Assembly: GCA_015067305.1 (NCBI GenBank)
Contig: SVMT01000006.1
Location: 18,751 to 82,750, forward strand
Reading direction: 5' to 3'
From: Oscillospiraceae bacterium
GTDB taxonomy: Bacteria; Bacillota; Clostridia; Oscillospirales; UBA644
Length of the DNA: 64,000 nt
The stretch's first letter is position 1. The number at the start of each line of letters is the position of its first letter. The notes beneath the pieces are model-generated. The model was not told where the DNA came from, made no database searches, and worked only from the letters and a program-made list of their open reading frames with translations. Made by a program: the position numbers and the translations under genes. Of the stretch, positions 2,951 through 61,899 are shown in pieces.

Positions 2951-2959
2951 ATTTGATTT

Positions 2960-5260: not shown

Positions 5261-5335
5261 TGTTTTCGGATCCCGAATCTGACTCCGAGAAATTCGGGAA
5301 AGCATTAAAAATCGGAGAGAAGGATTGGTAAAACC

Positions 5336-6208
5336 ATGGAAATGGAAAATGGAACAGTTGAAATTGTAGGCGTAAGATTCAAACCTGTTGGCAAAATATA
5401 TTTTTTTGATCCCAAAGGATTCAGCTTTAACTTGGGTGATAAAGTCATCGTTGAAACGGTACGCGGTTATGAAATAGGAAATATTGCGGTTCCCAATAAA
5501 TATGTCGAACCTGATAATAAATTCATGCCCCTGAGTCCCGTTATCCGTCCCGCAACGGAAGAGGATCTTGAACGGTGCCGAGAAAACAAAGAAAAAGAGA
5601 AAGAAGCTTTGAAGATATGCGAGGAAAAGATCGCAAAACACGGTCTTCCAATGTCTCTTGTGGATGTGGAATATACTTTTGATAATAACAAGATCATATT
5701 CTGCTTCGTTGCGGAGGGTAGAATCGACTTCCGTGAACTTGTAAAAGATCTTGCATCTGTATTCAAGACAAGAATCGAGCTTCGTCAGATTGGTGTTCGT
5801 GACGAAACAAAAGTCGTTGGCGCACTCGGCATGTGCGGCAGAAAAGTCTGCTGTGCAAGTTTTCTTTCCGAATTCGTTCCCGTATCGGTGCGTATGGCTA
5901 AGGAGCAGTCTCTGTCTACTAACCCCCAGAAAATTTCAGGTGCTTGCGGCAAGCTTATTTGCTGCTTGAACTTCGAAGAATCCACTTATGAGGAAGCATA
6001 TAAAACTTTGCCCCGTCAGGGTTCTTATATAAAAACTCCCGAAGGCAACGGTATAGTTGTGGAAGTAAGTGTTCCTCTTGAGATAGTATCCGTGCGTCTT
6101 GAATCTGAGGGCAACCCCATAAAACAGTTCAAAAAAGAAGAGGTCAAGATCCTTAAAGGCGTTGAAAAGAAGTCTGAAAAGGACGATTCCGAGGAAATTG
6201 AAGACTGA
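5336..6208 (+). CDS. ricT: PSP1-domain protein (YaaT/RicT-like)
   Basis: The N-terminus VGVRFKPVGKIYFFDP..VIVETVRGYEIG and the Cys-rich CGRKVCCASFL / CGKLICCLNFE segments match the PSP1/YaaT family. Its position after holB is conserved. Confidence 0.85.
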   Translation: MEMENGTVEIVGVRFKPVGKIYFFDPKGFSFNLGDKVIVETVRGYEIGNIAVPNKYVEPDNKFMPLSPVIRPATEEDLERCRENKEKEKEALKICEEKIAKHGLPMSLVDVEYTFDNNKIIFCFVAEGRIDFRELVKDLASVFKTRIELRQIGVRDETKVVGALGMCGRKVCCASFLSEFVPVSVRMAKEQSLSTNPQKISGACGKLICCLNFEESTYEEAYKTLPRQGSYIKTPEGNGIVVEVSVPLEIVSVRLESEGNPIKQFKKEEVKILKGVEKKSEKDDSEEIED

Positions 6209-6246: not shown

Positions 6247-6275
6247 TTGAAAAAAAGGAAAAAATGTGATAGAAT
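6247..6275 (+). promoter_or_regulatory. Ferredoxin promoter
   Basis: TTGAAA, 17 nt, then TGaTAGAAT. Confidence 0.55.
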
Positions 6276-6547: not shown

Positions 6548-7282
6548 ATGATACGGTTAGATGATCTGCAAGTTGGCGGTCTCAAGATCTACCAGAATTC
6601 CGACAGCTTTTGTTTTGGAACAGACGCTGTCTTGCTTTCATGGTTTGCGTCCGTCAAGAAATTTACCGATATAGTGGACTTGTGTTCAGGTAACGGCATC
6701 GTTGCGATACTGCTCTCCCGCTTTGGTTGTATGAAAAGCGGGGTTTGTGTTGAACTCAATGATGCTCAGGCATTGTTATGCAAAAAATCATTGGAACTGA
6801 ACCGTATTGAAAATAAAATTTCCGTTTTGAATACCGATCTGCGAAAAATACGAAAGGATAAATTGCTTCCTACCGCTTGCTGTGATCTTGTGACTGTAAA
6901 TCCGCCTTACAGTGCTGTGAATTCAGGTGCTGTGTCTTCGGGTACTAAAGGATTTGCGAGAACGGAACTCGAATGTACATTGAAAGATGTTGCGGAACAA
7001 AGTGCATTTCTTTTGCGTCAGGGCGGAAGACTTTGCGTTGTCCACAAACCGGACAGGCTTACAGATCTGATCTGCGAATGCCACAATGTGGGGCTTGAAC
7101 TCAAGCGTTTCCGTACAGTTCATGCTCACGCTGACGATACGCCCTCAATGATACTTGCAGAGTTTATAAAATTCGGGAAAAGCGGTGTGAATATCGAACC
7201 TCCGCTGATAATTTACGACGAAAACGGTCAATACACGGATATTATGAATAAGATCTATGAAAGAGGCAACAGCCATGAGTGA
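6548..7282 (+). CDS. SAM-dependent methyltransferase (YabB / tRNA m6A37 TrmN6-like)
   Basis: DLCSGNG SAM-binding loop and a VNPPY catalytic motif. It is located just upstream of rsmI as in Bacillus. Confidence 0.7.
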   Translation: MIRLDDLQVGGLKIYQNSDSFCFGTDAVLLSWFASVKKFTDIVDLCSGNGIVAILLSRFGCMKSGVCVELNDAQALLCKKSLELNRIENKISVLNTDLRKIRKDKLLPTACCDLVTVNPPYSAVNSGAVSSGTKGFARTELECTLKDVAEQSAFLLRQGGRLCVVHKPDRLTDLICECHNVGLELKRFRTVHAHADDTPSMILAEFIKFGKSGVNIEPPLIIYDENGQYTDIMNKIYERGNSHE

Positions 7283-12256: not shown

Positions 12257-12294
12257 GTGGGAAAAACCTCTTTTCTGAAAAAGGTCTTTCCCAC
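12257..12294. repeat. Solo hairpin related to the module hairpins (probable bidirectional terminator)
   Basis: GTGGGAAAAACCTCTTTTC-tg-AAAAAGGTCTTTCCCAC between convergent genes, flanked by T- and A-rich runs. Confidence 0.5.
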
Positions 12295-12302
12295 ATGTTT
12301 TA

Positions 12303-15051: not shown

Positions 15052-15264
15052 GCGGGAGAAGAAACCTTATTCCTAAAAGGTTCTTCTCCCGCACCCCTAT
15101 TTCCAAAACTCGTTGGGGCTAATTGATTGCAGGCATTATTTGCGTTAGCTTTATTTTTTATACTTAGTAAAATGTGCGAATGCACGGCAAAAGTTTATTG
15201 GAAAGGGTTCGGGGGAAACCTGTTTCACACGTGCAAGCAAGTGCACAAAAATGGTTTCCCCGCG
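15052..15264 (+). repeat. Structured intergenic module, copy A
   Basis: HP1 at 15052-15092. 5' arm ACCCCTATTTCCAAAA at 15093-15108. GCGTTAGCT at 15142-15150. Hairpin GTGCgaatGCAC at 15174-15185. 3' arm AAAGTTTATTGGAAAGGGTT at 15190-15209. HP2 GGGGAAACC...GGTTTCCCC at 15210-15264, then TTTTTA. Confidence 0.7.
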
Positions 15265-18195: not shown

Positions 18196-19641
18196 ATGAA
18201 ACGCATTATTGCAACTATTTTATTGGCAGTGATGGTTCTTGTTACTTCATGTGGCGCAGAACCCCCTGTACTTATGGACTTCCTCGGTCCCCAGACTGAC
18301 GGAAATGACTTCGGTGGTGTTACCATCAGGATTAACTCTGACGATAACTCAGAGGCAGAAGATGACAGCGGTTCCAAAAAAGGTTTTATCGGTACGGTTT
18401 TGAGATATGACCTTGAAACAACACTCGGTGATGCTATCATGCAGAGAACGGAAGCTGTTAAAAAAGCTTTGAATGTCAATATTGAATATGAATGGGAAGT
18501 GGACAGAGAAACAGCGAGAATGAAGCTTATGTCAGGTTCCTGGGATGCTGATATCACAAGCTATACAGGTTTCGGCGGTATGCAGGACTTTGCAGCTGCG
18601 GGAATGCTTCATCCCATTGCTGATTTTGATATTATCGACCTCAATGAAACATGGAAATACGGCGGCCCCAACGTACTTGAAGGCGGTATGGTGAACTCTG
18701 TTCCTTACTCTGTTCAGCCTGTTTCCTGGCCCGGTTGGGAACCCATGGAATGTTACGCCCTTTTCTATAACAGAGATATCGGTTCTATGAACGGTATTAC
18801 AGATCCTCAGGAATTCTATGAAAATCAGACTTGGGTATGGGATACATTTGAATCCGAATATCTTGCAAAGGTAAATCTTACCAGCGGTTCTGAAAAAATT
18901 CCCTGTCTTGCTACAGGTATTGACCCTCTTTACTACTGTCTTGCATATTCCAACAATGTTCAGTATGTAGAAATGGGTGCTGACGGTGCTTTTAAGATAA
19001 ATGCCGCACCCAATGAACTTATTGAAGCCCTTTCAGAAGGCAGAGAATGGGTTACCATGTATGGCGACAACATTGATCTTTCCGAAGGTTATTGGAGCCA
19101 TGACAACTACGACGACGGTTACGGTTACATGACGCTTGCTTCTCCCGGTACCATCGTTACAGGTTCTCTTGCGTACGAAGTTGACTTCTTCTCCGGCATT
19201 ATGCCCTTCCCCTGCGGTCCTTCCGTTGAATACGGCAGATGGGGTCAGGCTATTCAGAGAATTGAAGGTTTCGGTATTCCCATTTCTTCCAAGGAACCCG
19301 AAGTTGCGGCTCATGTTATTTCCGAACTCTTTGAACCCTTTGATGAATACATCGGAACTCTCGAAGAATACTACAGCTCCATGGCTTTTGAAGAAGGTAC
19401 ATACGACACAGAGATCTACACATCTCTTGATGACTACTCCAAATATGACTACACATTTGCAGGCGGTTCCGACCTTATGAGAGGTGTTAACAACAACCTC
19501 GCAAGTGTTCTCCGTTCCTCCAAGGGTGTTGCTGAAGCTATTCAGTCATATTCAGGGCAGATCACCGTAATTGCTGAAAAATATATTCTCCCCAACTACG
19601 ACTATATGTACAACAATTATTATGCAAATCTTGAAAACTAA
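18196..19641 (+). CDS. Lipoprotein, extracellular solute-binding-protein-like (paralog 1)
   Basis: Signal peptide with lipobox LVTSC. 481 aa with an SBP-like layout. It has its own consensus promoter and terminator. By eye, roughly half of the positions are identical to the next gene. Confidence 0.65.
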   Translation: MKRIIATILLAVMVLVTSCGAEPPVLMDFLGPQTDGNDFGGVTIRINSDDNSEAEDDSGSKKGFIGTVLRYDLETTLGDAIMQRTEAVKKALNVNIEYEWEVDRETARMKLMSGSWDADITSYTGFGGMQDFAAAGMLHPIADFDIIDLNETWKYGGPNVLEGGMVNSVPYSVQPVSWPGWEPMECYALFYNRDIGSMNGITDPQEFYENQTWVWDTFESEYLAKVNLTSGSEKIPCLATGIDPLYYCLAYSNNVQYVEMGADGAFKINAAPNELIEALSEGREWVTMYGDNIDLSEGYWSHDNYDDGYGYMTLASPGTIVTGSLAYEVDFFSGIMPFPCGPSVEYGRWGQAIQRIEGFGIPISSKEPEVAAHVISELFEPFDEYIGTLEEYYSSMAFEEGTYDTEIYTSLDDYSKYDYTFAGGSDLMRGVNNNLASVLRSSKGVAEAIQSYSGQITVIAEKYILPNYDYMYNNYYANLEN

Positions 19642-19871: not shown

Positions 19872-21293
19872 ATGAAGAAAGTTTTAGCTTTTTTACTTTT
19901 GGCTGTAATGTTAGTTTCAACTTCATGTGCGGCTGAACCTATGACCCTGCTCCCGTTCATTAACGATTCGGATTCAAGCGGAGTGAACTACGGTGGTGTT
20001 GAGATCATCATCAATTCAAGTGATAACGCAATGAATGATGACGAGACATATTGGGCTCAGATTCTCAAATACGATACCAATACAAATTACGGCGACGCTA
20101 TTCTTGCGAGAGTTGCCGATGTTGAGAAAAAACTCGGTGTTAAGATCGGTTATGACACGGAAGCAGACGGAGAGGATATTCTTCCTCTGCAAATCATGGC
20201 AGGTTCTTATGTAGGTGACATCGTTAATTATACAGCTTTCGGTGCTATGGAAAATTTTGCATCTGCAAATCTCCTTTTCCCCATGACCAATTTTGATCAT
20301 ATAGATCTTGCTGAGACATGGAAATACGGTAATGCAAACGTTCTCGAAGGTGCAATGGTCAAATCTGTTCCTTATGCTGTTCAGCCCGTTCAGTGGCCTA
20401 ACTGGGAACCTTCAGGTATTTCTTCCATGATTTACAATATGGATATGATTTCAGAATTATCTCTTACGGATCCCCACGAATTTTGGGAAAATGAGAATTG
20501 GTATTGGGATACATTTGAAGATACATATCTTAATGCTACAACGGGACTTGCTGAAGATGAATGGATGCTTTCCGCTTCCGAATACATTTTCTGGTACGGT
20601 CTTATGTATTCCAATGATGTGCAGTTCGTTTCTGCAAATGCAGATGGTGAATACGTTGTAAATTCCATGCCGCAGTCTATTATAGAAGCTGTTCAGGAAG
20701 GTGTAGACTGGTATCAGAACCATAGAGATATTGTAAACCTTTTCAGTGAGTATTGGAGTCATGAAGACTATGATAACGGTCTTTCCGTATTTACGGTTAC
20801 AGGCGCAACTACAGCAGTATCTGCCAGTATAGATGTGACTTCGGGTCTTATGCCTTTCCCTTGCGGCCCTTCTGCAACATACGGTACATGGCGTCAAGCA
20901 TTTGACAGAATTGAAGGTTTTGGTATTCCCATAACTTCACCTGAACCTGATATTGCTGCCCATGTTATTTCTGAACTTTTTGAACCCCTTGATGAATATC
21001 TCGGTGTATCACTTGAAGAATACTATAAAGAAATGATGTTCAATACAGAACTCGACGCAGAGATCTATATGGAACTTATTAAAGACGTTAGATATGATTA
21101 TACATTCCATGGCGGTTCAGACTTGATGAGAAGTGTAAACAATAATTTCTCAGGGGCTATCAAGTCAGGTAAAGCTGCAAATGAAGCTGCAGAAACATTC
21201 TCAAATCAGATTTCAGTGATTATGACCACATATGCACTTCCCAATTATGAGTATATGTATAAGAACTACTATTCTTTGGAAAACGCAGATTGA
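19872..21293 (+). CDS. Lipoprotein, extracellular solute-binding-protein-like (paralog 2)
   Basis: Lipobox VSTSC. Shares blocks with paralog 1: ETWKYG..NVLEG.MV.SVPY.VQPV.WP.WEP, GLMPFPCGPS, RIEGFGIPI.S.EP..AAHVISELFEP, YDYTF.GGSDLMR.VNNN. Confidence 0.65.
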   Translation: MKKVLAFLLLAVMLVSTSCAAEPMTLLPFINDSDSSGVNYGGVEIIINSSDNAMNDDETYWAQILKYDTNTNYGDAILARVADVEKKLGVKIGYDTEADGEDILPLQIMAGSYVGDIVNYTAFGAMENFASANLLFPMTNFDHIDLAETWKYGNANVLEGAMVKSVPYAVQPVQWPNWEPSGISSMIYNMDMISELSLTDPHEFWENENWYWDTFEDTYLNATTGLAEDEWMLSASEYIFWYGLMYSNDVQFVSANADGEYVVNSMPQSIIEAVQEGVDWYQNHRDIVNLFSEYWSHEDYDNGLSVFTVTGATTAVSASIDVTSGLMPFPCGPSATYGTWRQAFDRIEGFGIPITSPEPDIAAHVISELFEPLDEYLGVSLEEYYKEMMFNTELDAEIYMELIKDVRYDYTFHGGSDLMRSVNNNFSGAIKSGKAANEAAETFSNQISVIMTTYALPNYEYMYKNYYSLENAD

Positions 21294-26477: not shown

Positions 26478-26619
26478 CCTCCAACAAAACCGATGTATGG
26501 ATATTCTTTGAAGCAGACTGAAAAAGATACGGATTTATTTGCGTAAGCTTTTTATGTTTTGTTTTTTGAGTATTCCGTTATGAAGCATAGAATGCTTCAT
26601 CCAAAAGTTTTTTTGGAGG
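26478..26619 (+). repeat. Structured intergenic module, copy D (core only)
   Basis: 5' arm CCTCCAACAAAAC at 26478-26490. GCGTAAGCT at 26541-26549. Hairpin GAAGCAtagaaTGCTTC at 26582-26598. 3' arm AAAAGTTTTTTTGGAGG at 26603-26619. Confidence 0.6.
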
Positions 26620-26689
26620 GCGCAATAACCTCTTTATATATTCCTGCATATTATGTATTGTTGAAATTTTATATGTAAGGATTGATTTT

Positions 26690-27736
26690 ATGAACGGACT
26701 GACAGTAAGGACATTTCTCAGCGCAAATTCCGCTGAGGGATTTTTTTCGTTTTTTGATGAATTTTTGAAAGGGAAGAATACCTATATCATCAAAGGTGGT
26801 CCCGGTACGGGGAAGAGTACTTTTATGAAAAAAGTCGCATCTTCGGCGGTTTCAAAGGGAGACGTCACTGAATATGTTTACTGTTCTTCCGACCCGGGCT
26901 CTCTTGATGGGGTTTATATACACGGGTCTGAGACTGTTTTTACCGATGGTACTTCACCTCATGTTATGGAGCCGAAATATCCCGGTGCAATGGGCGGTAT
27001 AATCAACGTGGGACAATTTTTGAACAGCGAAAAACTGTCGTTGTCTAAATCCGACATAATCTCTCTTAGCAGGAAGATATCAGACAGTTATTCCCGTGCG
27101 TACAGATACTTGAAAGCGGCTCAATGTGCGGTATCAGATTTGCGTGAAACTGCGCTCAGATACCTTGATAAAGATGAGATGATGCAGTATTTCAAGACTG
27201 TTTCTGAAAAAAGATTTGCCTATAAAAAGGGTGAAAAAGGGAAGATTTTCCCTCGTTTTCTTTCGGGTATAACTCCAAAGGGCTTTATGACTTTTAAAGA
27301 TACCGTTTATACTCTTTGTTCCGAGGTCTTTGTTGTCCGTGATAAATACGGTATCGGTGGCAAAGCATTTGAATTTCTTAAAAATGCGGCAATATCTCAC
27401 GGTTTTGATGTCTATGAATTTCGCTCTCCTCTTGAACCGTGTCGCATAGTTCATATAGCGATCCCCGAATTGGATATTGCGTTTGTTACTTCTGATAAAT
27501 TCACTCAGTTTGAACCCCAGAACGCAAAAACGGTAAATCTTATGAGGTTTGTTTCCGACGACATTGATCTTGAGGGGAAAACATGCGTTTCCGCTTCAAA
27601 AATCATGAAGATCTGTATGAATGAGACATTTGAGTCTTTGCGTTCCGCAAAAGCTCTCCATGACGACCTTGAAGATATTTACATTGCTGCAATGGACTTT
27701 GCTGGTCTTGATAAGCTGATCGAAAAGTATATTTAG
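26690..27736 (+). CDS. P-loop NTPase of unknown function
   Basis: GGPGTGKST Walker A, 348 aa, no other recognised domain. It resembles conserved Firmicute hypothetical ATPases. Confidence 0.55.
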   Translation: MNGLTVRTFLSANSAEGFFSFFDEFLKGKNTYIIKGGPGTGKSTFMKKVASSAVSKGDVTEYVYCSSDPGSLDGVYIHGSETVFTDGTSPHVMEPKYPGAMGGIINVGQFLNSEKLSLSKSDIISLSRKISDSYSRAYRYLKAAQCAVSDLRETALRYLDKDEMMQYFKTVSEKRFAYKKGEKGKIFPRFLSGITPKGFMTFKDTVYTLCSEVFVVRDKYGIGGKAFEFLKNAAISHGFDVYEFRSPLEPCRIVHIAIPELDIAFVTSDKFTQFEPQNAKTVNLMRFVSDDIDLEGKTCVSASKIMKICMNETFESLRSAKALHDDLEDIYIAAMDFAGLDKLIEKYI

Positions 27737-27791
27737 TTTTTATGAAAATAGTAGTATATTAAGATATCGGTTTCTTTTTTTGATGAGGAAA

Positions 27792-27829
27792 GGGGAAACC
27801 TTTTTCTGCGAAAAGAAAAAGGTTTCCCC
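27792..27829. repeat. Solo hairpin of the GGGGAAACC/GGTTTCCCC type
   Basis: GGGGAAACCTTTTTCT-gcgaaa-AGAAAAAGGTTTCCCC between convergent genes. It is preceded by TTTTTTTGatGAGGAAAG, which resembles the module's 3' arm. Confidence 0.6.
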
Positions 27830-27850
27830 ATAAAATAATATTCATGATAT

Positions 27851-28216
27851 TTAATTCATATTGGCGTGTTTTTTTATTGCTTCAAAAGTCTCGTCACTTA
27901 TTACGTGTTCGATCTTGCAGGCATCGGCTGAGGCGATTTCTTCTGGTACACCAATGCGAGTGAAAAATTCTGTGAGCAGTTCATGTCTTTCATATATCTT
28001 AATTGCTCTTGCTTCACCCTGTTCCGTCAGCGTTATGTATCCTTTTTGGTCAACAAGAATTAGCCCCTCATCTTTCAGCAACCCGATGGCGCGGCTGATG
28101 CTGGGTTTTGAATATCCCGTATGGTTTACGATGTCGATCGAGCGAACTCCCGACATCTGTTGACTTAGCACGTAAATGTTTTCAAGATACATTTCGCCTG
28201 ATTCGTGTATGTTCAT
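27851..28216 (-). CDS. DtxR/MntR-family metal-dependent transcriptional regulator
   Basis: HESGEMYLENIY...SIDIVNHTGYSKPSISRAIGLLKDEGLI winged HTH plus a metal-binding helix region. The ATG at 28216 gives the canonical N-terminus. Confidence 0.85.
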   Translation of the reverse strand: MNIHESGEMYLENIYVLSQQMSGVRSIDIVNHTGYSKPSISRAIGLLKDEGLILVDQKGYITLTEQGEARAIKIYERHELLTEFFTRIGVPEEIASADACKIEHVISDETFEAIKKHANMN

Positions 28217-28490
28217 GGTCATCTCCAAGATCAAATTTGTTATCCTCATAATGATACCATAAAATCGTGGGAAAATCAAGGGCTTTTTTGTGTTATTTGC
28301 TGATTTTTCAAATATTATGCGGTTTGTATTTTATTGCAATTATTTGTGAATCCTGTTGACTGTTAATCTTGAATATGTTATAATATAAGCGTAATTAAAT
28401 CTGTTTAAGAGGTGTAAAATTAGCCGTTATTCTCGGAATTATGGCTGTATATGGGTTATTATCTAAATATTTGAAAAAGGAGAGATCTGT

Positions 28491-34276: not shown

Positions 34277-37200
34277 ATGAACTCAAAACACACACCCAAG
34301 TTCAAGGCGCTCCTCGCCCTGTTCTTGAGTATCAGTATGCTGTTCAGCATGGTCGTCACATCCTTTGCGGCATTGCCTCAGGATGTTGTCGATGATGATG
34401 TGATCAGATACGTTTCTATCGGTGACTCCGTTACTAATGGTTACGGCTTGGATGAATACTATTTTTACGACGCTAATGGTAAGCGAATAAATTCTACAGG
34501 TTTTCGTAGATATGTTCCTACCTCTTATCCTTATCGTATTAGTGAGATTTTAAGCGAAGCTTTAGGTATGCCTGTTGAACTTGATCCTATGGCTATTGCC
34601 GGAATGCGCTTCAATGATCTTCGTCTCATACTTGATGAGTCTTTTGGCGGCGATACATATATGGGTGATGAAAATGGCGACGGTATAAGAGAAACGGTTT
34701 GGCGTTATAATAGCGCTGTTGACTGTTGGCTTGATATTTATCTTTCAAACCCGGAAGATGATAAAATAGATCCAAATGGTACTGCTGCTAAATATATAAA
34801 AGATTATAACTATACTAAAGGTTCGGACTTGGATCCTGCTTCAAGATGGGAAATCCTTAATAATGAATTTACATTGTCAATTGAAAAAGCAGATTTTATC
34901 AGTATTGATCTCGGATCTAATGATTTTGGTACTTATCTTACAGACCGATTGATGGATTATGTACAGGGTGAAGCTTTTGATGTTTCTAAGGCAGATTATC
35001 AGCGTTTTGAAATTTTCTTCGATGAGGTTTCTGTTAAGTCTTTGGAAAACATGGTCCTTACCATGATTCAAAATGCAGGTTATGAAGAACCATTGAAGTC
35101 TGTTGTTGGAGACCTTGTTGAAACTCTTCTTTATGGCCTTGTATCTTTCTGTGGAAACTTTGATGCTTGTATGGAGTTGCTCTTTGATATCAACCCTGAC
35201 GCACAGGTGATGATTATTGATGCATACAACATGATGTCCAGTGTTAAAATTGACGGTACTGCAGTTTTTGGTGAAGGCATAAATGTCAGTGATATAATGA
35301 ATATATTTATTGATATGGCAAATCTCTACACAAGAGAGCTTTCCCCTTATGCAAGCAAAGTTCTTCATGTAGATATCGGTGCTGATTCTTATCCAGATCT
35401 TGTAATGGATTACTTTAATGATTTTTCCGGTTGGATGAATCTTGAAGATGACGAAGTAACAGAAGCAAGAACAATAATGAAGTTGTTGCTTGAAGAATTC
35501 CTTGGTGATGAATGGTCTGCAGTTGAAGAGCAGATTATTACTATTGACAACATGGAAGATGATATTTCCGGCACTATTTCACTTAATATCATCAGCGCAA
35601 TTCTTGAAAACGCTCAGACCTCTGTTGAGGGCGTTAACCTTGTTAAAAAAGCAGTTGACGGTGTTGCACAGGCAGAATCTCTTATTGGTAACATCACTTC
35701 TACATACGTAGATACTGCATTTCTTGAAGGATATCTCCCCGATATTGTTGCCAAATATGACGGAACATCTTTAGAATCAATTATAAGATCAAACATCAGC
35801 AGTACAGTTGAAGACCTTTTGAAGGATGAATCTTTAGCGTCCATGCTTCCCCAAGAGGTTACTTCTTCAGTAATTTCTGATATGGTATATGATGTAGCTT
35901 TAGCTTACGGAAAATCTACATCCAACGAAGCTAAAAATGCGGTTATAAAAGCGGCGGTTATTGACATTTTGGAACTCGCACAGAGTTGCGATGAAGCTTA
36001 TGCTAATTTCATCTACAATATAGTTTCGGAATATAATGATGAAGCAAATACAACAGATAAAGAAAAAATGGTTGCCGCTATCACAACATATCTTAGCGCT
36101 GACACATCTATTGAAAAACCCGAAGCTATGGCTGAACTTGCATATACAGTATACTGTATTTACGATGCCGTTGTAGTTAAAGGTACTTTAGCTGACGCAA
36201 ATGATGTTATTGCCGTATTGACAGCGCTGTACGGTGATCGTCTGTTGCCTGAACAGATAAACGCAATAGGTGCTTGCTATTCGGGAAATTATACTGATGA
36301 GGAGCTTGTGACTGCTGTTTCCACATTGATGGCTTTGGGCGGATACGCTGACAGCATTGATATGTATAAATTGTATCATCAGTTTCCCTATACATTATCT
36401 GAAATAGCACAGAGCAATACTATTTATCTTGATTCATTCTTGCCGTATTTGGCTGGAAAGGCTTTGGATTTTGACGGTATTGCTGCAAGATTTTTCAGCG
36501 ATGATGATCCCTTGATTCTTACTGAACCTGACAGAGAAAAATATGAATCTGACGAAGCGTATAATGAAGCTTTTGAAATGTTCAAGCATGACTCCACACT
36601 TCTTACAGTTTATATCAGATTCCTCTCCCTCACAGGTTTGTTTGTTCACCCCAATTCTACAGGACATGCAACTTTTACGGAAGTAATATCAGAATATCTT
36701 GATAAGTTCGTTCCCAATGTGGCTGCAGGTGACGATGTTTACGAGCTCAGAACCGATATCGAATATAAAGTTCTTGCTATCGGCGACGAATATATTAAAA
36801 ATGTTGAAGATTGTTATGCTGAGAAAGTTGCAGAGGCTTTGGACAGCACTGTTAAATATCAATCATATCCCGGTTGGACAGTAGGGGAAACTCTTACTTT
36901 TGCTAAGAATAATCCTGAAAATATTTCCGGTTATGACTTGATCCTCCTTAATGTCGGTGCTTGGAATGTAGGCTATATTGCAAAATATCTCAACTCTAAC
37001 GGAACAGCTCCCATAGATCTTACAGATATTGATATCCTTGATGTTTCAAAAGATGCTGACGGTAAAAACAGTATCGGTGAAAGATTCGAAGACATGCTTA
37101 GCGGCGACGATATGATGCTCATGGCTAAGGCTATGATGTATGGTTACGCTGACTTCGCAAACAGCATTGAGCCTCTTGTTGAAACTCTTCTTGATACAGG

Positions 37201-40003
37201 TGCTACCGTTGTTATCGTTGGACTTGATAAACTTATGTCCGACAACTCTATCTTTGCACTTGGTGAAAACCTTACATTTAAACTTGATCTCCTTATTGAA
37301 AAACTTACAAGTGACTTTAACGGTCATATGGAAGTTATAGCAGATAAATACGAGAATTGCTACTTCACAGATATCTCCGGTGTAAATACAGGCGTTTCCA
37401 CTCCTGTTGTGATTACTCCCAACGGTGTTGGAGATATGGCTACAATGATGGGTGAAACACTCTTTGATGAATATGAACATGAAGAGATCGCAAAGAGAAT
37501 CATTTGTGATACCCTTGGTATTCACGTTCCTAATGCTGACGATGAAGGAACAACTGAAAAGATAGCTACTTTGGACGAATGTTGCTACGTTACATATAGC
37601 GGATGTGAATTGTGCGGAGTAGGTTCTTTCACAAGAGAAGTCGAACATGTTTGGGGTATGTACTTGATAGGTAGTGATGAGGCTACAGGTAAGGACATAC
37701 TTGAGGCAAAATGGGCAGACGACTTTACTTCTGCAACACCTATTTTGCGTTGCCCCGCTTGTGATGTGGAAACTCTTGCTGAATACTATACATCTGAAAA
37801 CATTACCATTAAAAAATATGAATCTTGTGAAGAAGACGGATATTGGAACTATACTGTTACATTTGACATTGGCGGAGAAGAATATGTGAATGTTTACAGT
37901 CGTGAAGTTGGTCCTACGGGTCACAAGTACGTCGAACCCACTTGGGAATGGACTAAGAATGAAGATGGCGTTTACGTAAATGCTGAAGCTACATTCGTTT
38001 GCGCTAACGACGAAGAACATGTTGAAAAAGTTTCCACAGAAGAATTCTCTGTTAAGGTAGTTACAGAACCCACTTGTACAGGTGAAGGTGAAAACGAATA
38101 TACCGCTACAGTTGAATTTAACGATAAAGAATATTCTAATACTAACCCCGAATATGTTGTTGTAGACAAGATCGCTCACGCTTACGACAAACCTGTTTGG
38201 GCTTGGTCTGAAGATCTTTCCGAAGCTACAGCTTCCTTCGAATGCATTTCTTGCGACGATGTTCAGGTTGTAGAAGCTGAGATCGAATCCGAAACAACTA
38301 AGTCTACTTGTCTTGAACACGGCGAAACAGTTTATACTGCAACTGTAGTATTCGGTGACGACAAGAAAGAATTTACAGATTCTATAACAGTAGAGCTTGA
38401 ACTCGGCGATCACGATTATGTTGATGATATCTGCTCCGTTTGCGGTGAAAAAGACCCCGATGCTCGTCCCGACGAAACAGGCGACTGCGTATATGTAACA
38501 GAAGAAGAACTTGACGCTGACGGTGTTTACACAATGACTCTCGGTGGTGAAGAGGTTGGCGAATTTGAATTCATTGCGGTTGACGGCGGTTGGACGATTT
38601 CCGATGACGGTGAATATCTTGCAATCGAAAACGGCAAACTTGTTTACAGTGAAAATGCGTTTGTTTGGACATTTGAAGATGATATGTTCAGCGCAAGCGA
38701 AACTGTAGTTGAAGAAATCAAAAAAGGCTTCTGGGGCGGTCTCTTTGGCGGTTCCGACAGCACAGAAATCGTAGAAACTACAACAACATACTACCTCGCA
38801 GTTGTTGAAGACGAACTCACAGCAGGCGAGATCGGTGATGCGGCAGAATTCTCTGTTAAACATCATGATGACAAACACAGCTACGACGAAGGCGTTGTAA
38901 CTAAACCCACTTGCACAGATAAGGGTTACACAACTTATACTTGCGAAAAGTGCGGCGAAGAATGTGTTTATAACGAAAGAGAAAAAATCGAACACAACTA
39001 CGTAGACGGCAAATGTGAAGACTGCGGTAAGCTTGAGGATGTTGAAGAACCCGAAGAACCTGAAGAAAACTGCATCTACATTGAAGAAGTTGAGCTTGAA
39101 GAAGACGGTTCTTATATTCTCTCTATCGGCGGCTATGAAGTAGGTAAATATACTGTTACGGCAGTTGATGACGGTTGGACTATCTTTGATGAAAAAGATG
39201 AAACATATCTTGCAGTTCTTAACGGTATCCTCGTTTATACAGATGAAGAGTTTGTTTGGGCTTATGATGAAGAAGAATGCAAGTTCTTCTATGAAGATGT
39301 TAAGGTTGTAACTACAACAAACAACTTCTGGGGCGGACTCTTCGGAGGTTCCACATCAACAGAGACTATCGTTAATGTTTACTACATCGTTCCCGAAGAA
39401 GATAAACTCGTAGTTTCTGAAGATGATGAACTTGCAGAAGTAACCTTTGAGGTCATTGTTGTTGAAGAAGGTCACGACTATGTTGACGGTATTTGCGAAA
39501 ACTGTGGTAAGTGCGAAGATGATACCTGCGTACACTTCGATGCTGTAGAGCTTGAAGAAAACGGCGAATACGTACTTATTATCGGTGATGAACATCTTGG
39601 CTTCCATACATTTGAAAATGTTGACGAAGACCTTTGGACTATCGTTAATGAAGACGGCGACTATGTAGCACTTGAAGATGGCGAGATCGTTTACACAAGC
39701 GAAGAATTCGTATGGACATACGATTCCGAAAAATCCGTATTCTCTGTTGAGATCGTAACTGTTGCGACAAGCGGCTTCTGGGGTGGACTCTTCGGTGGAA
39801 ATACTTCTACAAAGGTAGAAACTTATTATCTTGTTGCTGAAGACGGTAACCTTGCTGTTTCCTTGAAAGACAAGACTGCAACAGCTGAATTCCTTGTTGA
39901 AGTCGAAGGCGAACATGAATACGGCGACTTGGAAGATTACTACGGTTTGGGTCGTTCTTTCTGCGAAAATTGCGGTACAGTAAAATTTGAAATTGCTGAA
40001 TAA
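34277..40003 (+). CDS. Giant secreted acidic protein: split SGNH hydrolase, degenerate SGNH-like domain, Cys-rich modules and three FWGGLFGG repeats
   Basis: AGGAGGA as SD. Signal peptide ending SFA/A. GDS at 34421-34429, GSND at 34907-34930, HPNSTGH at 36647. One uninterrupted 1908-codon frame. Strong terminator at 40019-40049. Confidence 0.8.
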   Translation: MNSKHTPKFKALLALFLSISMLFSMVVTSFAALPQDVVDDDVIRYVSIGDSVTNGYGLDEYYFYDANGKRINSTGFRRYVPTSYPYRISEILSEALGMPVELDPMAIAGMRFNDLRLILDESFGGDTYMGDENGDGIRETVWRYNSAVDCWLDIYLSNPEDDKIDPNGTAAKYIKDYNYTKGSDLDPASRWEILNNEFTLSIEKADFISIDLGSNDFGTYLTDRLMDYVQGEAFDVSKADYQRFEIFFDEVSVKSLENMVLTMIQNAGYEEPLKSVVGDLVETLLYGLVSFCGNFDACMELLFDINPDAQVMIIDAYNMMSSVKIDGTAVFGEGINVSDIMNIFIDMANLYTRELSPYASKVLHVDIGADSYPDLVMDYFNDFSGWMNLEDDEVTEARTIMKLLLEEFLGDEWSAVEEQIITIDNMEDDISGTISLNIISAILENAQTSVEGVNLVKKAVDGVAQAESLIGNITSTYVDTAFLEGYLPDIVAKYDGTSLESIIRSNISSTVEDLLKDESLASMLPQEVTSSVISDMVYDVALAYGKSTSNEAKNAVIKAAVIDILELAQSCDEAYANFIYNIVSEYNDEANTTDKEKMVAAITTYLSADTSIEKPEAMAELAYTVYCIYDAVVVKGTLADANDVIAVLTALYGDRLLPEQINAIGACYSGNYTDEELVTAVSTLMALGGYADSIDMYKLYHQFPYTLSEIAQSNTIYLDSFLPYLAGKALDFDGIAARFFSDDDPLILTEPDREKYESDEAYNEAFEMFKHDSTLLTVYIRFLSLTGLFVHPNSTGHATFTEVISEYLDKFVPNVAAGDDVYELRTDIEYKVLAIGDEYIKNVEDCYAEKVAEALDSTVKYQSYPGWTVGETLTFAKNNPENISGYDLILLNVGAWNVGYIAKYLNSNGTAPIDLTDIDILDVSKDADGKNSIGERFEDMLSGDDMMLMAKAMMYGYADFANSIEPLVETLLDTGATVVIVGLDKLMSDNSIFALGENLTFKLDLLIEKLTSDFNGHMEVIADKYENCYFTDISGVNTGVSTPVVITPNGVGDMATMMGETLFDEYEHEEIAKRIICDTLGIHVPNADDEGTTEKIATLDECCYVTYSGCELCGVGSFTREVEHVWGMYLIGSDEATGKDILEAKWADDFTSATPILRCPACDVETLAEYYTSENITIKKYESCEEDGYWNYTVTFDIGGEEYVNVYSREVGPTGHKYVEPTWEWTKNEDGVYVNAEATFVCANDEEHVEKVSTEEFSVKVVTEPTCTGEGENEYTATVEFNDKEYSNTNPEYVVVDKIAHAYDKPVWAWSEDLSEATASFECISCDDVQVVEAEIESETTKSTCLEHGETVYTATVVFGDDKKEFTDSITVELELGDHDYVDDICSVCGEKDPDARPDETGDCVYVTEEELDADGVYTMTLGGEEVGEFEFIAVDGGWTISDDGEYLAIENGKLVYSENAFVWTFEDDMFSASETVVEEIKKGFWGGLFGGSDSTEIVETTTTYYLAVVEDELTAGEIGDAAEFSVKHHDDKHSYDEGVVTKPTCTDKGYTTYTCEKCGEECVYNEREKIEHNYVDGKCEDCGKLEDVEEPEEPEENCIYIEEVELEEDGSYILSIGGYEVGKYTVTAVDDGWTIFDEKDETYLAVLNGILVYTDEEFVWAYDEEECKFFYEDVKVVTTTNNFWGGLFGGSTSTETIVNVYYIVPEEDKLVVSEDDELAEVTFEVIVVEEGHDYVDGICENCGKCEDDTCVHFDAVELEENGEYVLIIGDEHLGFHTFENVDEDLWTIVNEDGDYVALEDGEIVYTSEEFVWTYDSEKSVFSVEIVTVATSGFWGGLFGGNTSTKVETYYLVAEDGNLAVSLKDKTATAEFLVEVEGEHEYGDLEDYYGLGRSFCENCGTVKFEIAE
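38411..40003 (+). repeat. Three in-frame tandem coding repeats (~150-200 aa each) in the giant gene
   Basis: The units start at H-x-Y-V-D-x-x-C-x-x-CG (38411, 38993, 39473). Each contains FWGGLFGG (38729-38752, 39326-39349, 39776-39799). Confidence 0.85.
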
Positions 40004-42770: not shown

Positions 42771-42799
42771 TTGACAAGTTGGAAAAAATGTTGTATAAT
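42771..42799 (+). promoter_or_regulatory. Housekeeping-type promoter of the sigma-factor gene
   Basis: TTGACA (42771-42776), 17 nt, then TATAAT (42794-42799). Confidence 0.6.
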
Positions 42800-45016: not shown

Positions 45017-45023
45017 ATACAAT

Positions 45024-45058
45024 AACGGAGTCAGAAATTGGCTCCGTTATTTATTTTA
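45024..45058 (+). terminator. Terminator after the 43670..45016 lipoprotein gene
   Basis: AACGGAGTC / GGCTCCGTT stem, then ATTTATTTTAT. Confidence 0.7.
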
Positions 45059-46736: not shown

Positions 46737-47079
46737 GGGGAACCGTTTTTCTTTTCGCGGAAAAAGAAAAACGGTTCCCCAAACCCCTCCAAAAAAGAAA
46801 ACCGATGCTGGAGGGTCCTGTTAAAATATTATTTTTATAAAAATATATTCTAAACGGATTCTTTTCGCGGAAAAAGAAAAAAGGTTCACCAAACCCTTCC
46901 AAAAAAGAAAACCGCTGATTGGGGCATCTTGGAAAAAATGTCCCAATAGCTGATGCATGGAAAAATGCATTTGCGATAGCTATTGGGGCTTTTAGTTTTG
47001 ATTTTGAGCTTTGCTCGGTAAAAGTTTTTTTGGATAGGGGTATGGGGAAAACCTATTTTTACAAAAAATGGTTTTCCCC
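46737..47079 (+). repeat. Structured intergenic module, copy B (expanded)
   Basis: HP1 is a perfect 19-bp stem at 46737-46780. A direct duplication links 46751-46813 and 46861-46923. Inner hairpin CCCAATAGCT / AGCTATTGGG at 46942-46987. Hairpin GAGCtttGCTC at 47006-47016. 3' arm at 47021-47040. HP2 at 47044-47079. Confidence 0.7.
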
Positions 47080-47101
47080 ATATAAAACTTAAATATTTCC
47101 C

Positions 47102-53156: not shown

Positions 53157-54782
53157 ATGAAACTTAGATTACCCGATATGATACGTATTTACGGTGAAAA
53201 CTGGACTAAGGAATTTGACTGTAAATATGTGAACGGAAGCGCTTTTCATGTGGATTTTGACGACGTTAATATTGATTTTGAAAAGAAAGACGCTCTTGAA
53301 GTCCGTGTGAAAGCAAATACCACTCCGTTGAATTTTATTCGTCTTCGCTATAATTTCACAGAGGACGAAAAACGCAAAGACCTCATCAAGATAATGGGCG
53401 ACACTTTTGAGCGAGGCTACGGTGAACTTGAATGGTTCGGCATCAAGCCCGAAAGAACTTTCCCCTGGTATATACTTGTTTCCAACGGAAGCGATACAAA
53501 CCTTGATTGCAGCGGCAGATTTACCGAAGGCTTTGGCGTAAAGACTATGACAAGCTCTTTTGTTGTTTGGCAGTATGACTCCGCAGGTATTCTTGTCTGG
53601 ATCGACATCAGAAACGGCGGTAAAGGTGTTCACCTTAACGGCAGAGAACTCCTTGCCTGCGAGATACTTTTCGGAGAATTCCGCGATATGTCCGCTTTTC
53701 ATGCAGGAAAAGAGTTCTGCAAAATGATGTGTCCCAACCCCGTTTTGCCGAAACACAAGGTCTATGGTTCCAATAACTGGTATTATGCATACGGAAATTC
53801 CTCTCATGACGAGATCCTTTCCGATACAAAGCTTGTTGCTGAGGAATGTAAGGGGCTTGAAAATATACCCTATATGGTTATTGACGACGGATGGCAGAAA
53901 AATGCGACCGATGCGCCCTGGACAGTTCTGAATGAAAAGTTCCGCGACATGAAAGAGCTGGCATCCGAAATGACGAAGTTGGGTGTCAGACCCGGTATTT
54001 GGGTTCGTTATCTCATTGACAGCCACAATGAAGTACCTGAAGCTAAGCCTGAATGGAGATTCAAACATTCGCCTAAATTCTTTGACCCCTCACATCCCGA
54101 AGTTATCGACTATGTAAAACGCACCACGAAAATGCTGGTTGATTGGGGTTATAAGCTCATTAAACACGACTTTTCCACCCACGATATTTTCGGAAAATTT
54201 CGTATGACGGAAAGAATTGCACCAAACGGCTGGGATTTTTACGATAAGACTCGCACATCTGCTGAAATCGTTGTTGATTTCTATAAAGCGGTAAAAGAAG
54301 CCGCAGGCGAAGACTGCGTTATTATCGGATGTAACACCGTCGGACATCTTTGCGCAGGAATTTATGAGTTGAACCGTACAGGTGACGACACGAGTGGCAG
54401 AAGATTCGAAGATACACGTAAAATGGGCGTAAATACTCTTGCTTTCAGAATGATACACAACGAGACCTTCTATATGGCTGACGCTGACTGCGTTGGTATC
54501 ATGGGCCCCATTCCCTGGGCACTTAACAGAGAATGGCTCACAGCCCTTTCACGAAGCGGATCACCCTTGTTTGTTTCATGTAAGCCCAGAATCCTCAACG
54601 AATCTGAGCTTGAGGAGCTTCGTGAGGCGTACAAGATCAATTCCGTTCAGGAAAATGAGCTTCGTCCTTTGGACTGGATGGAAAATGTTTGTCCTAACCG
54701 CTGGCTTCTTGACGGCAAGGAAATAGAATTTAAATGGTACGACCACGCAGGTCCCGAATACTATAATCCTTATTGGAATTGA
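53157..54782 (+). CDS. Clan GH-D-like TIM-barrel glycosidase (melibiase/alpha-galactosidase-like)
   Basis: YMVIDDGWQ and LIKHDF motifs resemble GH27/GH36-type alpha-galactosidases. No signal peptide. AAGGAGA as SD. Confidence 0.55.
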   Translation: MKLRLPDMIRIYGENWTKEFDCKYVNGSAFHVDFDDVNIDFEKKDALEVRVKANTTPLNFIRLRYNFTEDEKRKDLIKIMGDTFERGYGELEWFGIKPERTFPWYILVSNGSDTNLDCSGRFTEGFGVKTMTSSFVVWQYDSAGILVWIDIRNGGKGVHLNGRELLACEILFGEFRDMSAFHAGKEFCKMMCPNPVLPKHKVYGSNNWYYAYGNSSHDEILSDTKLVAEECKGLENIPYMVIDDGWQKNATDAPWTVLNEKFRDMKELASEMTKLGVRPGIWVRYLIDSHNEVPEAKPEWRFKHSPKFFDPSHPEVIDYVKRTTKMLVDWGYKLIKHDFSTHDIFGKFRMTERIAPNGWDFYDKTRTSAEIVVDFYKAVKEAAGEDCVIIGCNTVGHLCAGIYELNRTGDDTSGRRFEDTRKMGVNTLAFRMIHNETFYMADADCVGIMGPIPWALNREWLTALSRSGSPLFVSCKPRILNESELEELREAYKINSVQENELRPLDWMENVCPNRWLLDGKEIEFKWYDHAGPEYYNPYWN

Positions 54783-54809
54783 TTTATTATAATTTTTATA
54801 TTTTTTTAT

Positions 54810-55037
54810 GGGGGAAACCCTCTTTTCGCGTGAAAAGAGAGTTTCCCCCATACCCCTTTCCGAGAAAAGCGATACAGGGGCTTTATCAAAAAAGACTAAA
54901 AGCTAACGCAAATTCAGATCATGTATTATTGGCGTTAGCTATTGATCCTTTACCGTTTATTTTTTGTACGAAGTACAGTTAAAGTTTTTTTGGAAAGGGT
55001 ACGGGAAAACCAATTTTTACAAAAAATGGTTTTCCCG
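54810..55037 (+). repeat. Structured intergenic module, copy C (cleanest)
   Basis: HP1 at 54810-54849. 5' arm at 54851-54870. AGCTAACGC / GCGTTAGCT at 54901-54940. GTACgaaGTAC at 54966-54976. 3' arm at 54981-55001. HP2 at 55002-55037. Confidence 0.7.
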
Positions 55038-61870: not shown

Positions 61871-61899
61871 TTGACAAAATAAATAAATTGTGCTATAAT
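61871..61899 (+). promoter_or_regulatory. Promoter of the HMA / P-type ATPase operon
   Basis: TTGACA (61871-61876), 17 nt, then TGcTATAAT (61894-61899). Confidence 0.7.

Follow-up and report, generated by a model that had tools for sequence, protein, structure and literature searches.

Mosaic repeats built from palindromes are well described in the intergenic DNA of Proteobacteria, pneumococci and the Bacillus cereus group; to our knowledge, there is no description of such repeats for uncultured gut Clostridia. REP elements of Proteobacteria, imperfect extragenic palindromes of 20-40 nt, are co-transcribed and have known effects on mRNA stability, and among Firmicutes the pneumococcal BOX element (boxA-boxB(n)-boxC) and the bcr1-type repeats of the B. 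cereus group are modular intergenic repeats with module duplication, complementary end modules and a stable fold, co-transcribed with their neighbours and, as far as we know, devoid of a transposase of their own. REP sequences are defined by a GTAG or CGTC tag at the end of the palindrome, and the survey text that gives this definition makes no mention of Firmicutes or Clostridia (PMC3733652). Here we describe a structured intergenic element that recurs within 64,000 nt of contig SVMT01000006.1 from an Oscillospiraceae bacterium (hereafter the window), with the copy at 54810-55037 (the 54.8 kb copy) as its reference.

The original prediction, made from the letters alone, had taken this element for a candidate RNA family. 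Its view of a real, recurring, ordered and highly structured module holds, whereas that of a discrete small RNA (sRNA) gene tied to the upstream gene is not supported: inverted symmetry, mosaic and solo copies, filled and empty sites, free orientation and equal folding of the two strands point to a repeat. The best-supported description is that of a repeat family similar in kind to REP/REPIN, BOX and miniature inverted-repeat transposable elements (MITEs) and a member of none of those families. On balance, we favour the view that the copies are lineage-restricted, non-coding, mosaic palindromic intergenic repeats of REP/BIME/REPIN, BOX or MITE likeness in a clostridial lineage.

Two inverted units flank an asymmetric core

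The 54.8 kb copy occupies the junction between the stop of an alpha-galactosidase-like gene (54782, + strand) and the convergent stop of a lipoprotein gene (55059, - strand), its first long hairpin (HP1) starting 27 nt past the former and its last (HP2) ending 21 nt short of the latter. Reading of the window sequence verified the coordinates of all six sub-elements, lettered here as modules A to F: HP1 (A), the 5' arm (B), the inner hairpin (C), the small variable hairpin (D), the 3' arm (E) and HP2 (F) (Table 1). The 5' arm of this copy can pair with the 3' arm; alternatively, its CCCC can pair locally with the downstream GGGG. HP1 and HP2 measure 34-44 nt and are always intergenic, and no conserved open reading frame (ORF) was found in the element copies.

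A profile hidden Markov model comprising the small hairpin, 3' arm and HP2 was made from 16 copies and used together with explicit pair counts; MAFFT alignment left the small hairpin out of register. The E+F profile also recognises the left end of the element, HP1 with the 5' arm, when this is read as its reverse complement, both in related loci, denoted here by L numbers (L018, E = 1.9e-10; L098, E = 4.4e-8), and in the window (54868-54810, E = 6e-7; 46796-46737, E = 7e-3), so that this left end and the right end, the 3' arm with HP2, represent one unit of ~55-60 nt in opposite orientations. In order, the unit comprises a T-run, the GGAAAGGG(T) box, a gap of 2-3 nt and a long hairpin GGGRAAACC ... 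GGTTTYCCC with a G/C clamp and an A/T-rich interior, followed in some copies by an A-run. In a full element, the inverted unit on the left is made of HP1, ACCCCTTTCC and an A-run, and the forward unit on the right is made of the 3' arm and HP2; the core between them, a GCGTTAGCT hairpin and the small variable hairpin, is asymmetric. The full element is thus an inverted pair of one unit flanking an asymmetric core, and the long-range stem of the original prediction exists because the boxes of the inverted units pair.

Modular copies and solo units in the window and beyond

The three further copies in the original prediction, one of them a core only, were confirmed, and two solo units that it had not listed were added (Table 1). 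The window therefore holds four composite copies and two solo units in 64 kb, compared with two to three copies in the 14.8 kb of L098. Recurrence exceeds chance: the 3'-arm pattern has 5 matches in the window against 0.55 expected, and the GCGWTAGCT box has 9 against ~2. In the 46.7 kb copy, a repeat finder delimits a direct duplication of the A-B module (46749-46829 / 46859-46939). The solo unit at 27776-27830 ends 21 nt ahead of the stop of a - strand gene (27851-28279).

Copies in relatives are assembled from the same modules in various combinations, down to E-F alone (Table 1), and Defluviitaleaceae copies retain the order of small G/C hairpin, AACCCC, A/T-rich hairpins, E and F.

Table 1. 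Parts of the 54.8 kb copy, other copies and solo units in the window, and modular composition of copies
Feature	Position	Strand	Description
T-rich left flank	54797-54809	+	ATATTTTTTTAT; adjoins 5' side of HP1; recurs before HP1 in 46.7 kb copy and L044
HP1 (module A)	54810-54849	+	Left-unit hairpin GGGGGAAACC..GGTTTCCCCC; 18 + 4 + 18 nt, one C.A mismatch
5' arm (module B)	54851-54870, with downstream GGGG to 54880	+	TACCCCTTTCCGAGAAAAGC
Inner hairpin (module C)	54901-54909 / 54932-54940	+	AGCTAACGC / GCGTTAGCT; the conserved box makes up the 3' half
Small variable hairpin (module D)	54966-54976	+	GTACgaaGTAC; AAAG begins 4 nt after 3' end
3' arm (module E)	54981-55001	+	AAAGTTTTTTTGGAAAGGGTA: T-run, then Shine-Dalgarno-like GGAAAGGG box
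HP2 (module F)	55002-55037	+	Right-unit hairpin CGGGAAAACC..GGTTTTCCCG
15 kb copy	15052-15262	+	Full A-B-C-D-E-F; between SpoU methylase gene and convergent DUF378 gene
26.5 kb copy	26478-26622	+	Core only, B-C'-D-E, without HP1/HP2; between two + strand genes
46.7 kb copy	46737-47080	+	A-B-A'-B-C-D-E-F; between NAD synthase gene and convergent GH127 gene
Solo unit	27776-27830	+	T-run, GAGGAAA, hairpin GGGGAAACC..GGTTTCCCC; E+F profile E = 3.8e-6
Solo hairpin, same style	12258-12295		GTGGGAAAAACC..GGTCTTTCCCAC; 18 nt past stop 12239; weak profile match, E = 1.5e-3
54.8 kb copy, L018, L044			Composition A-B-C-D-E-F, as in 15 kb copy
L098 ortholog of 46.7 kb copy			Composition A-B-A-B-D-E-F; duplication kept, C missing, different D
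L004, L011, L025			Composition C-D-E-F
L043, L052			Composition D-E-F
L059, L061			Composition E-F

Relatives that carry the element were collected by two scans, in both of which the unreal loci are chance matches to an A/T-rich pattern. A query made of the box and the 3' arm returned 27 loci from a genome collection; the five real ones are confined to two metagenome-assembled genomes (MAGs) labelled "Eubacteriales", one with L004, L014, L018 and L025 and the other with L011. A 19-mer of the 3' arm returned 63 loci from metagenomes, of which ~13 are real: window-type copies (L043, L044, L052, L061), isolated copies on contigs of higher G+C (L032, L037, L038, L059) and copies in one termite-gut organism (L048, L051, L068, L073, L076), two proteins of which are annotated as Defluviitaleaceae. 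The invariance of the 19-mer among fetched loci is built in, because the exact 3'-arm pattern was the query; copies free of this bias, namely all four window copies, L098 and additional ones in L048, L051, L068 and L076, vary, for example as AAAAGTTTATTGGAAAGGG, AAAGTTTTTTTGGAGGG, AAAAGTTTTTTGGAAAAGGG and AAAGTTTTGAAGGGG. No match was obtained by blastn in the plasmid collection, the 19-mer gave only chance matches inside genes in viral contigs, and ~100 kb examined from more distant relatives yielded no copy; a search of the literature on REP and RAYT produced no report for Clostridia.

Hairpins are maintained by compensatory change, without clear strand specificity

Compared with dinucleotide shuffles, the 54.8 kb copy folds with almost the same excess of stability on the + strand (-91.2 kcal/mol, z = -9.51) and on the - strand (-92.6 kcal/mol, z = -9.48). 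Hairpins of the element are maintained through compensatory changes. In HP2, 92% of cells are paired, 7 of the 17 pairs show double changes and none shows a one-sided change; the hairpin of the orthologous pair L004 / L011 reads CGGG..CCCG in one and TGGG..CCCA in the other, and both arms of HP1 differ symmetrically between the 46.7 kb copy and its L098 ortholog. As had been claimed, pairing of the arms co-changes in the 26.5 kb copy (CCTCC / GGAGG), and the small hairpin keeps its position while its sequence varies (GTAC, GAGC, GTGC, GTGTG, GTGCG, GAAGCAT, TAAAGCAT): at least seven distinct stem sequences occur, the distance of 4 nt to AAAG holds in window-type copies, and a stem of at least 5 bp lies 3-6 nt from AAAG in 20 of the 26 copies examined. 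The bases that precede HP2 also vary (GGGTAC, GGGTGC, GGGTTC, GGGGTAT, GGGGGTTTA). Unguided MAFFT alignment and RNAalifold folding of eight full copies recovers only HP2 in the consensus, because indels disrupt the alignment. The inner hairpin of L106, from a 98% strain, has one pair broken (G-C to A.A).

The structural signal shows no clear strand specificity. G-U pairs in the long-range stem, formerly advanced in favour of a + strand transcript, are not decisive given that the - strand folds equally well: the HP1 mismatch of the 54.8 kb copy becomes a G.U pair on the - strand only and offsets the two G.U pairs of the long stem. Among 12 copies compared, the + strand is more stable in 8, a weak test of strand, and G.U counts give a slight + strand excess in 8 of 12, which does not settle the matter either. 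Rfam returned no match at the gathering threshold for the window and 14 related loci, in agreement with the earlier statement that no named RNA family could be recognised, and searches of the 54.8 kb copy at E values up to 10 gave chance-level matches only.

Copies lack a fixed orientation relative to genes

A fixed polarity relative to the upstream gene, part of the original prediction, does not survive comparison. The proportion of window genes on the - strand is ~36%, not about half, and at three of the four window copies the flanking genes converge (SpoU / DUF378, NAD synthase / GH127 and alpha-galactosidase-like / lipoprotein), so that either orientation would count as downstream of a same-strand gene. 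In relatives, both gene-relative orientations occur, which is the first of the outcomes that the original prediction had named as contrary to it. Forward copies at co-directional sites are found at 26.5 kb in the window and in L004 / L011, L018, L048, L051 and L076; by contrast, the L025 copy is reversed between a PfkB kinase gene and a SpoVAC gene, antisense to both, the L043 copy is reversed after a pyrophosphatase gene and antisense to both neighbours, and reversed second copies follow an FtsY gene in L048 and a response regulator gene in L076. Fixed orientation relative to neighbouring genes is thus lacking; proximity is what stays the same, with at least one hairpin of the element 6-45 nt from the neighbouring stop codon or ~20-40 nt ahead of the following start.

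Replication offers another frame of reference. GC skew is positive and AT skew mostly negative across window 1-64000, making the + strand probably the leading strand. Within the window-type lineage, orientation matches the sign of the local skew at 10 of 12 independent loci, L025 and L043 among them, although short contigs give noisy values. Such skew-linked orientation would fit replication-coupled insertion; against this, the Defluviitaleaceae loci have both orientations within 1-5 kb.

Syntenic sites gain or lose the element between species

Comparison of syntenic sites shows gain or loss of the element between species. The 15 kb site carries the element in a 93% relative (L115), a single hairpin GGGGAAAGCAGTT..AACTGTTTTCCCC with U-rich tails on both sides in an 82% relative (L111) and an ordinary terminator in an 80% relative (L114). 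The HP2 loop of the window copy at this site has an additional nested hairpin, GTGCAAGCAAGTGCAC (window 15220-15250), that is found neither in other copies nor in L115, whose HP2 loop is shorter. The junction of L114 that is syntenic with the 26.5 kb site has no copy. At the 3' side of the NAD synthase gene, the element is present in L098, and ordinary sequence or a terminator takes its place in 91% and 81% relatives, in which synteny has changed too. The 54.8 kb site of strain L106 is occupied as in the window, apart from seven small differences that include the broken pair of the inner hairpin.

Some support for homogenisation between copies comes from the L098 ortholog of the 46.7 kb copy, whose differing small-hairpin type recurs at 26.5 kb in the window and in L043.

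L098, which belongs to JAZTZU01, also contains a distinct, classical MITE of ~225 bp (5306-5529), lodged within the terminator hairpin that follows the gene upstream of NAD synthase. This MITE has the terminal inverted repeats AATATCATTAAGTTAAG / CTTAGCTTAATTATATT, is flanked by an 8-bp direct repeat ATTGACTC and looks unlike the element family described here. Window 45021-45051 corresponds to the empty site, with the terminator intact, and a second, partial copy of this MITE lies at the contig end (L098 14737-14804), right after the HP1 ortholog.

Comparison with described repeat systems

Like the REP, BIME and REPIN sequences that RAYTs mobilise in Proteobacteria, the clostridial units are short extragenic imperfect palindromes at gene ends, which occur singly or as inverted doublets making a larger hairpin (here, the arms pair in minimum-energy folds), form mosaic arrays and are long retained in a lineage. 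They differ in having no GTAG or CGTC tag, the bases before HP2 varying instead between TAC, TGC, TTC and TAT, in their longer unit with a T-run and a GGAAAGGG box, in the conserved asymmetric core that separates the units, in their clostridial host and in the absence of a RAYT gene from the sequence examined. The resemblance to BOX and bcr1-type repeats lies in modular intergenic build, duplication and complementary ends; it is one of description, with sequence kinship not expected, and differs in that each end module here has a long hairpin of its own.

With MITEs such as Correia / NEMIS of Neisseria and ERIC, the element shares a size of 150-340 bp, terminal inverted repeats, intergenic location without an ORF, filled and empty sites between relatives, which may reflect gain or loss, and the potential to provide terminators or RNase III sites. 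Unlike these, it gave no sign of target-site duplication or of a parent insertion sequence sharing its ends, and solo units and half elements are common. Palindrome-associated transposable elements (PATEs) derived from IS200/IS605 have hairpins at both ends and are not expected to duplicate their target; a possible strand-specific structure in single-stranded DNA, together with skew-following orientation at 10 of 12 window-type loci, adds to the likeness. Against it stand the true inverted-repeat ends of the present element, unlike those of IS200/IS605, the lack of tnpA or tnpB linked to copies and the mixed orientation, within 1-5 kb, of the Defluviitaleaceae loci.

One gene in the collected DNA bears on transposases of this kind. 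L110 encodes (2711-3253, - strand) a 180-aa protein that resembles RAYT/IS200 tyrosine transposases in its HUH motif (PNHVHLL) and its YYEH at the C-terminus; its precomputed Pfam match to Y1_Tnp is only faint. The genome is a 74% relative, the gene is in place of two small genes found in L109, and no hairpin units flank it.

A probable repeat family, its possible activity and what weighs against it

If the copies are repeats of this kind, a trans-acting DNA process working on hairpin ends would spread or homogenise them, whether by transposing folded single strands or through recombination among copies. The copies are probably co-transcribed, since they lie ~6-45 nt from gene ends, often where relatives have terminators; if active at all, their stable hairpins may act as 3' exonuclease barriers, processing sites or terminator substitutes. 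A catalogued family would account for breaks in MAG assemblies, mark gene boundaries, serve as a strain-typing and lineage marker and offer a test case for repeats that take over from ordinary terminators. An sRNA call for a repeat should, moreover, be preceded by checks for inverted symmetry, mosaic copies and a convergent-gene context.

Several observations weigh against this reading. No transposase or RAYT-like gene is linked to copies in the window or in element-bearing loci, the sole Y1-type gene seen across all DNA examined being that of L110, a genome sample without elements; tags of the REP type, GTAG or CGTC, are absent. No target-site duplication is visible at the 15, 26, 46.7 and 54.8 kb junctions or in filled-versus-empty comparisons, and the element did not turn out to be a MITE with such duplications, an outcome that the original prediction had considered. 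Filled and empty sites are seen only between species (80-94% protein identity), with no polymorphism seen within species, so that loss is indistinguishable from gain. In the comparison of the window with L098, identity is 61% at third codon positions and ~85-90% in the left half of the 46.7 kb element, a level of conservation that implies constraint or homogenisation between copies. Covariation of the small hairpin at a fixed distance, combined with this conservation, also fits selection on a functional RNA, and the presence of a related module in Defluviitaleaceae needs either horizontal spread or long-term constraint. Because of the fixed geometry of the small hairpin, the conservation above the neutral level and the Defluviitaleaceae module, a functional cis-acting RNA keeps appreciable weight.

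Alternative readings

That alternative, which we consider a serious though minority possibility, is a functional module of untranslated regions, in which a host factor would read the small hairpin, the U7-GGAAAGGG box and HP2 in the transcript. The factor, for which the ribosome or its 30S subunit (via the Shine-Dalgarno-like box), a pausing or termination factor and an RNase are candidates, would govern the 3' ends, stability or read-through of mRNAs at gene boundaries, and the usefulness of the module would multiply its copies. The 4-nt spacing to AAAG, constant despite at least seven stem sequences, argues for this, as do the compensatory changes in HP1 and HP2 between orthologous copies, conservation above the synonymous level, the D-E-F order shared with Defluviitaleaceae and the unfailing proximity of a hairpin to a stop (6-45 nt) or start (~20-40 nt before). 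The inner stems of L018 and L044 have G.U pairs as read on the + strand, and GGAAAGGGG could, by our analogy with STAB-SD stabilisers, pair with the 3' end of 16S rRNA. On the other side, copies have no fixed orientation relative to transcribed genes, the two strands fold equally, with the HP1 G.U pair of the 54.8 kb copy falling on the - strand, and HP2 is free of one-sided (G.U) intermediates. The inner hairpin has a broken pair in the 98% strain and is missing altogether from L098, a U-tract after HP1 or HP2 is inconsistent, and the invariance of the 19-mer in fetched loci is an effect of the search pattern, bias-free copies being variable.

A broader proposal, which we regard as doubtful, would unite the small hairpin with the AAAG-U(n)-GGAAAGGG box and the GGGRAAACC hairpin in one conserved, cross-family clostridial signal, either a novel cis-RNA or an undescribed mobilisation end, whose hosts would be a rumen lineage near Oscillospiraceae and termite-gut Defluviitaleaceae. 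As a cis-RNA, it would be a gene-boundary element read by a conserved host factor, possibly through 30S binding to the Shine-Dalgarno-like box or as a hairpin and U-run pause site followed by a clamp hairpin. As a mobilisation end, it would be recognised by a single-strand DNA system of Firmicutes, with insertions following the direction of replication, as the skew match at 10 of 12 loci might suggest. If the D-E-F module shared with Defluviitaleaceae is indeed functional, an unknown RNA-end or mobilisation mechanism in Firmicutes would be indicated.

HP1 and HP2 are unlikely to be plain intrinsic terminators of two convergent genes, in a lineage-specific style and with an unimportant spacer. 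Each hairpin does lie 13-27 nt past the stop of the gene that reads into it, and the L111 counterpart of the 15 kb site, a single GGGGAAA..TTTCCCC hairpin with U-rich sequence on both sides, is a normal bidirectional terminator. A terminator scan, however, calls neither HP1 nor HP2; the T-run is upstream of the hairpins rather than downstream, and the sequence that trails HP2 differs between copies, being A-rich, mixed or U-rich. Moreover, the supposed spacer is made of conserved, ordered modules that recur at unrelated loci and between co-directional genes, the 26.5 kb copy is a core devoid of both hairpins, and the hairpin style is rare in L111, with one weak match in 22 kb.

Even less probable is a family of independent sRNA genes, each with its own promoter, a start at HP1, an end after HP2 and a ACCCCUUUCC arm as a possible anti-Shine-Dalgarno seed. 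A sigma-70-like TTGGAA-18-TATATT lies at 54773-54802, just 5' of HP1, with TATAAT as the second hexamer in L106 and L098; U-rich tails follow HP2 in the 15 kb and 54.8 kb copies, and the L025 and L043 copies, antisense to their neighbours, would need a promoter of their own. Yet promoter-like sites occur at chance level (38 versus 41 in shuffled sequence), none is common to the copies and the hexamer at 54773 is the end of a coding sequence. HP1 or the 5' arm is wholly missing from many copies, the U-tails are not conserved, and four copies in 64 kb with a mosaic build are atypical of sRNA genes.

A DNA recombination substrate, with the inverted units as invertase or tyrosine recombinase sites (inverton or attC-like) that flip or exchange the core, is very improbable: ~55-nt inverted repeats around a 100-130 nt core and identical ends in many copies would suit it, but every version of the same locus (window, L091, L106, L098) has one orientation, there are no RYYYAAC / GTTRRRY attC core sites (GTTTTTT is unfit for GTTRRRY), no integrase or invertase gene is nearby and the element is bordered by large housekeeping and glycoside hydrolase genes rather than by cassettes.

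Other candidates were tried and rejected. The 3' arm does not qualify as a promoter of sigma-A, sigma-B, sigma-54 or Bacteroidetes type, spacings or boxes being misfit across copies, nor do the small hairpin and U7 qualify as a terminator, with a gap of 8 nt between stem and U-run. CodY or cre boxes, an RAT antiterminator site and a -1 frameshift signal are contradicted by misfit motifs and the lack of an ORF, and a type I toxin-antitoxin locus or small protein by the lack of a conserved ORF. Orthology of the L018 copy with the 26.5 kb copy, considered since a 348-aa ORF follows both, found no support in protein similarity.

Host lineage and other features of the window

Window genes include rnfB and a holB - ricT/yaaT - trmN-like - rsmI order typical of Firmicutes, and homologues of the NAD synthase, alpha-galactosidase-like and helicase genes are labelled Clostridia. 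The same contig is present in many gut and rumen metagenome samples, and a sister MAG (GCA_045637625.1, JAZTZU01) encodes proteins 90-94% identical to those of the window.

Just downstream of the 26.5 kb copy, an nSTAND3-like NTPase gene (26690-27736) is preceded by a 5' leader hairpin (window 26641-26683) in which the Shine-Dalgarno region of this same gene is paired to a C/T-rich arm (TCCTGCATAT..ATATGTAAGGA in the window, CCCCTTTTACA..TGTAAAAGGGG in L114). The hairpin is conserved in three species, namely those of the window, L111 (reverse complement, 6620-6770) and L114 (reverse complement, 2150-2280), and may be a translational control element. Elsewhere, two genes of ~475 aa (18196-19641 / 19872-21293) are tandem duplicates with 76-78% DNA identity over stretches of 68-164 nt, and a 1908-aa ORF (34277-40003) is internally repetitive, with a ..TTCTGGGGCGGACTCTTCGG.. 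motif occurring three times between 38720 and 39814. The holB-ricT-rsmI block suggests that the window is located near the replication origin. Strong extended -10 sigma-A promoters, TTGACA-N-TGTNNTATAAT, are situated upstream of genes at 6247-6275, 42771-42799 and 61871-61899, pointing to canonical Firmicute promoter use.

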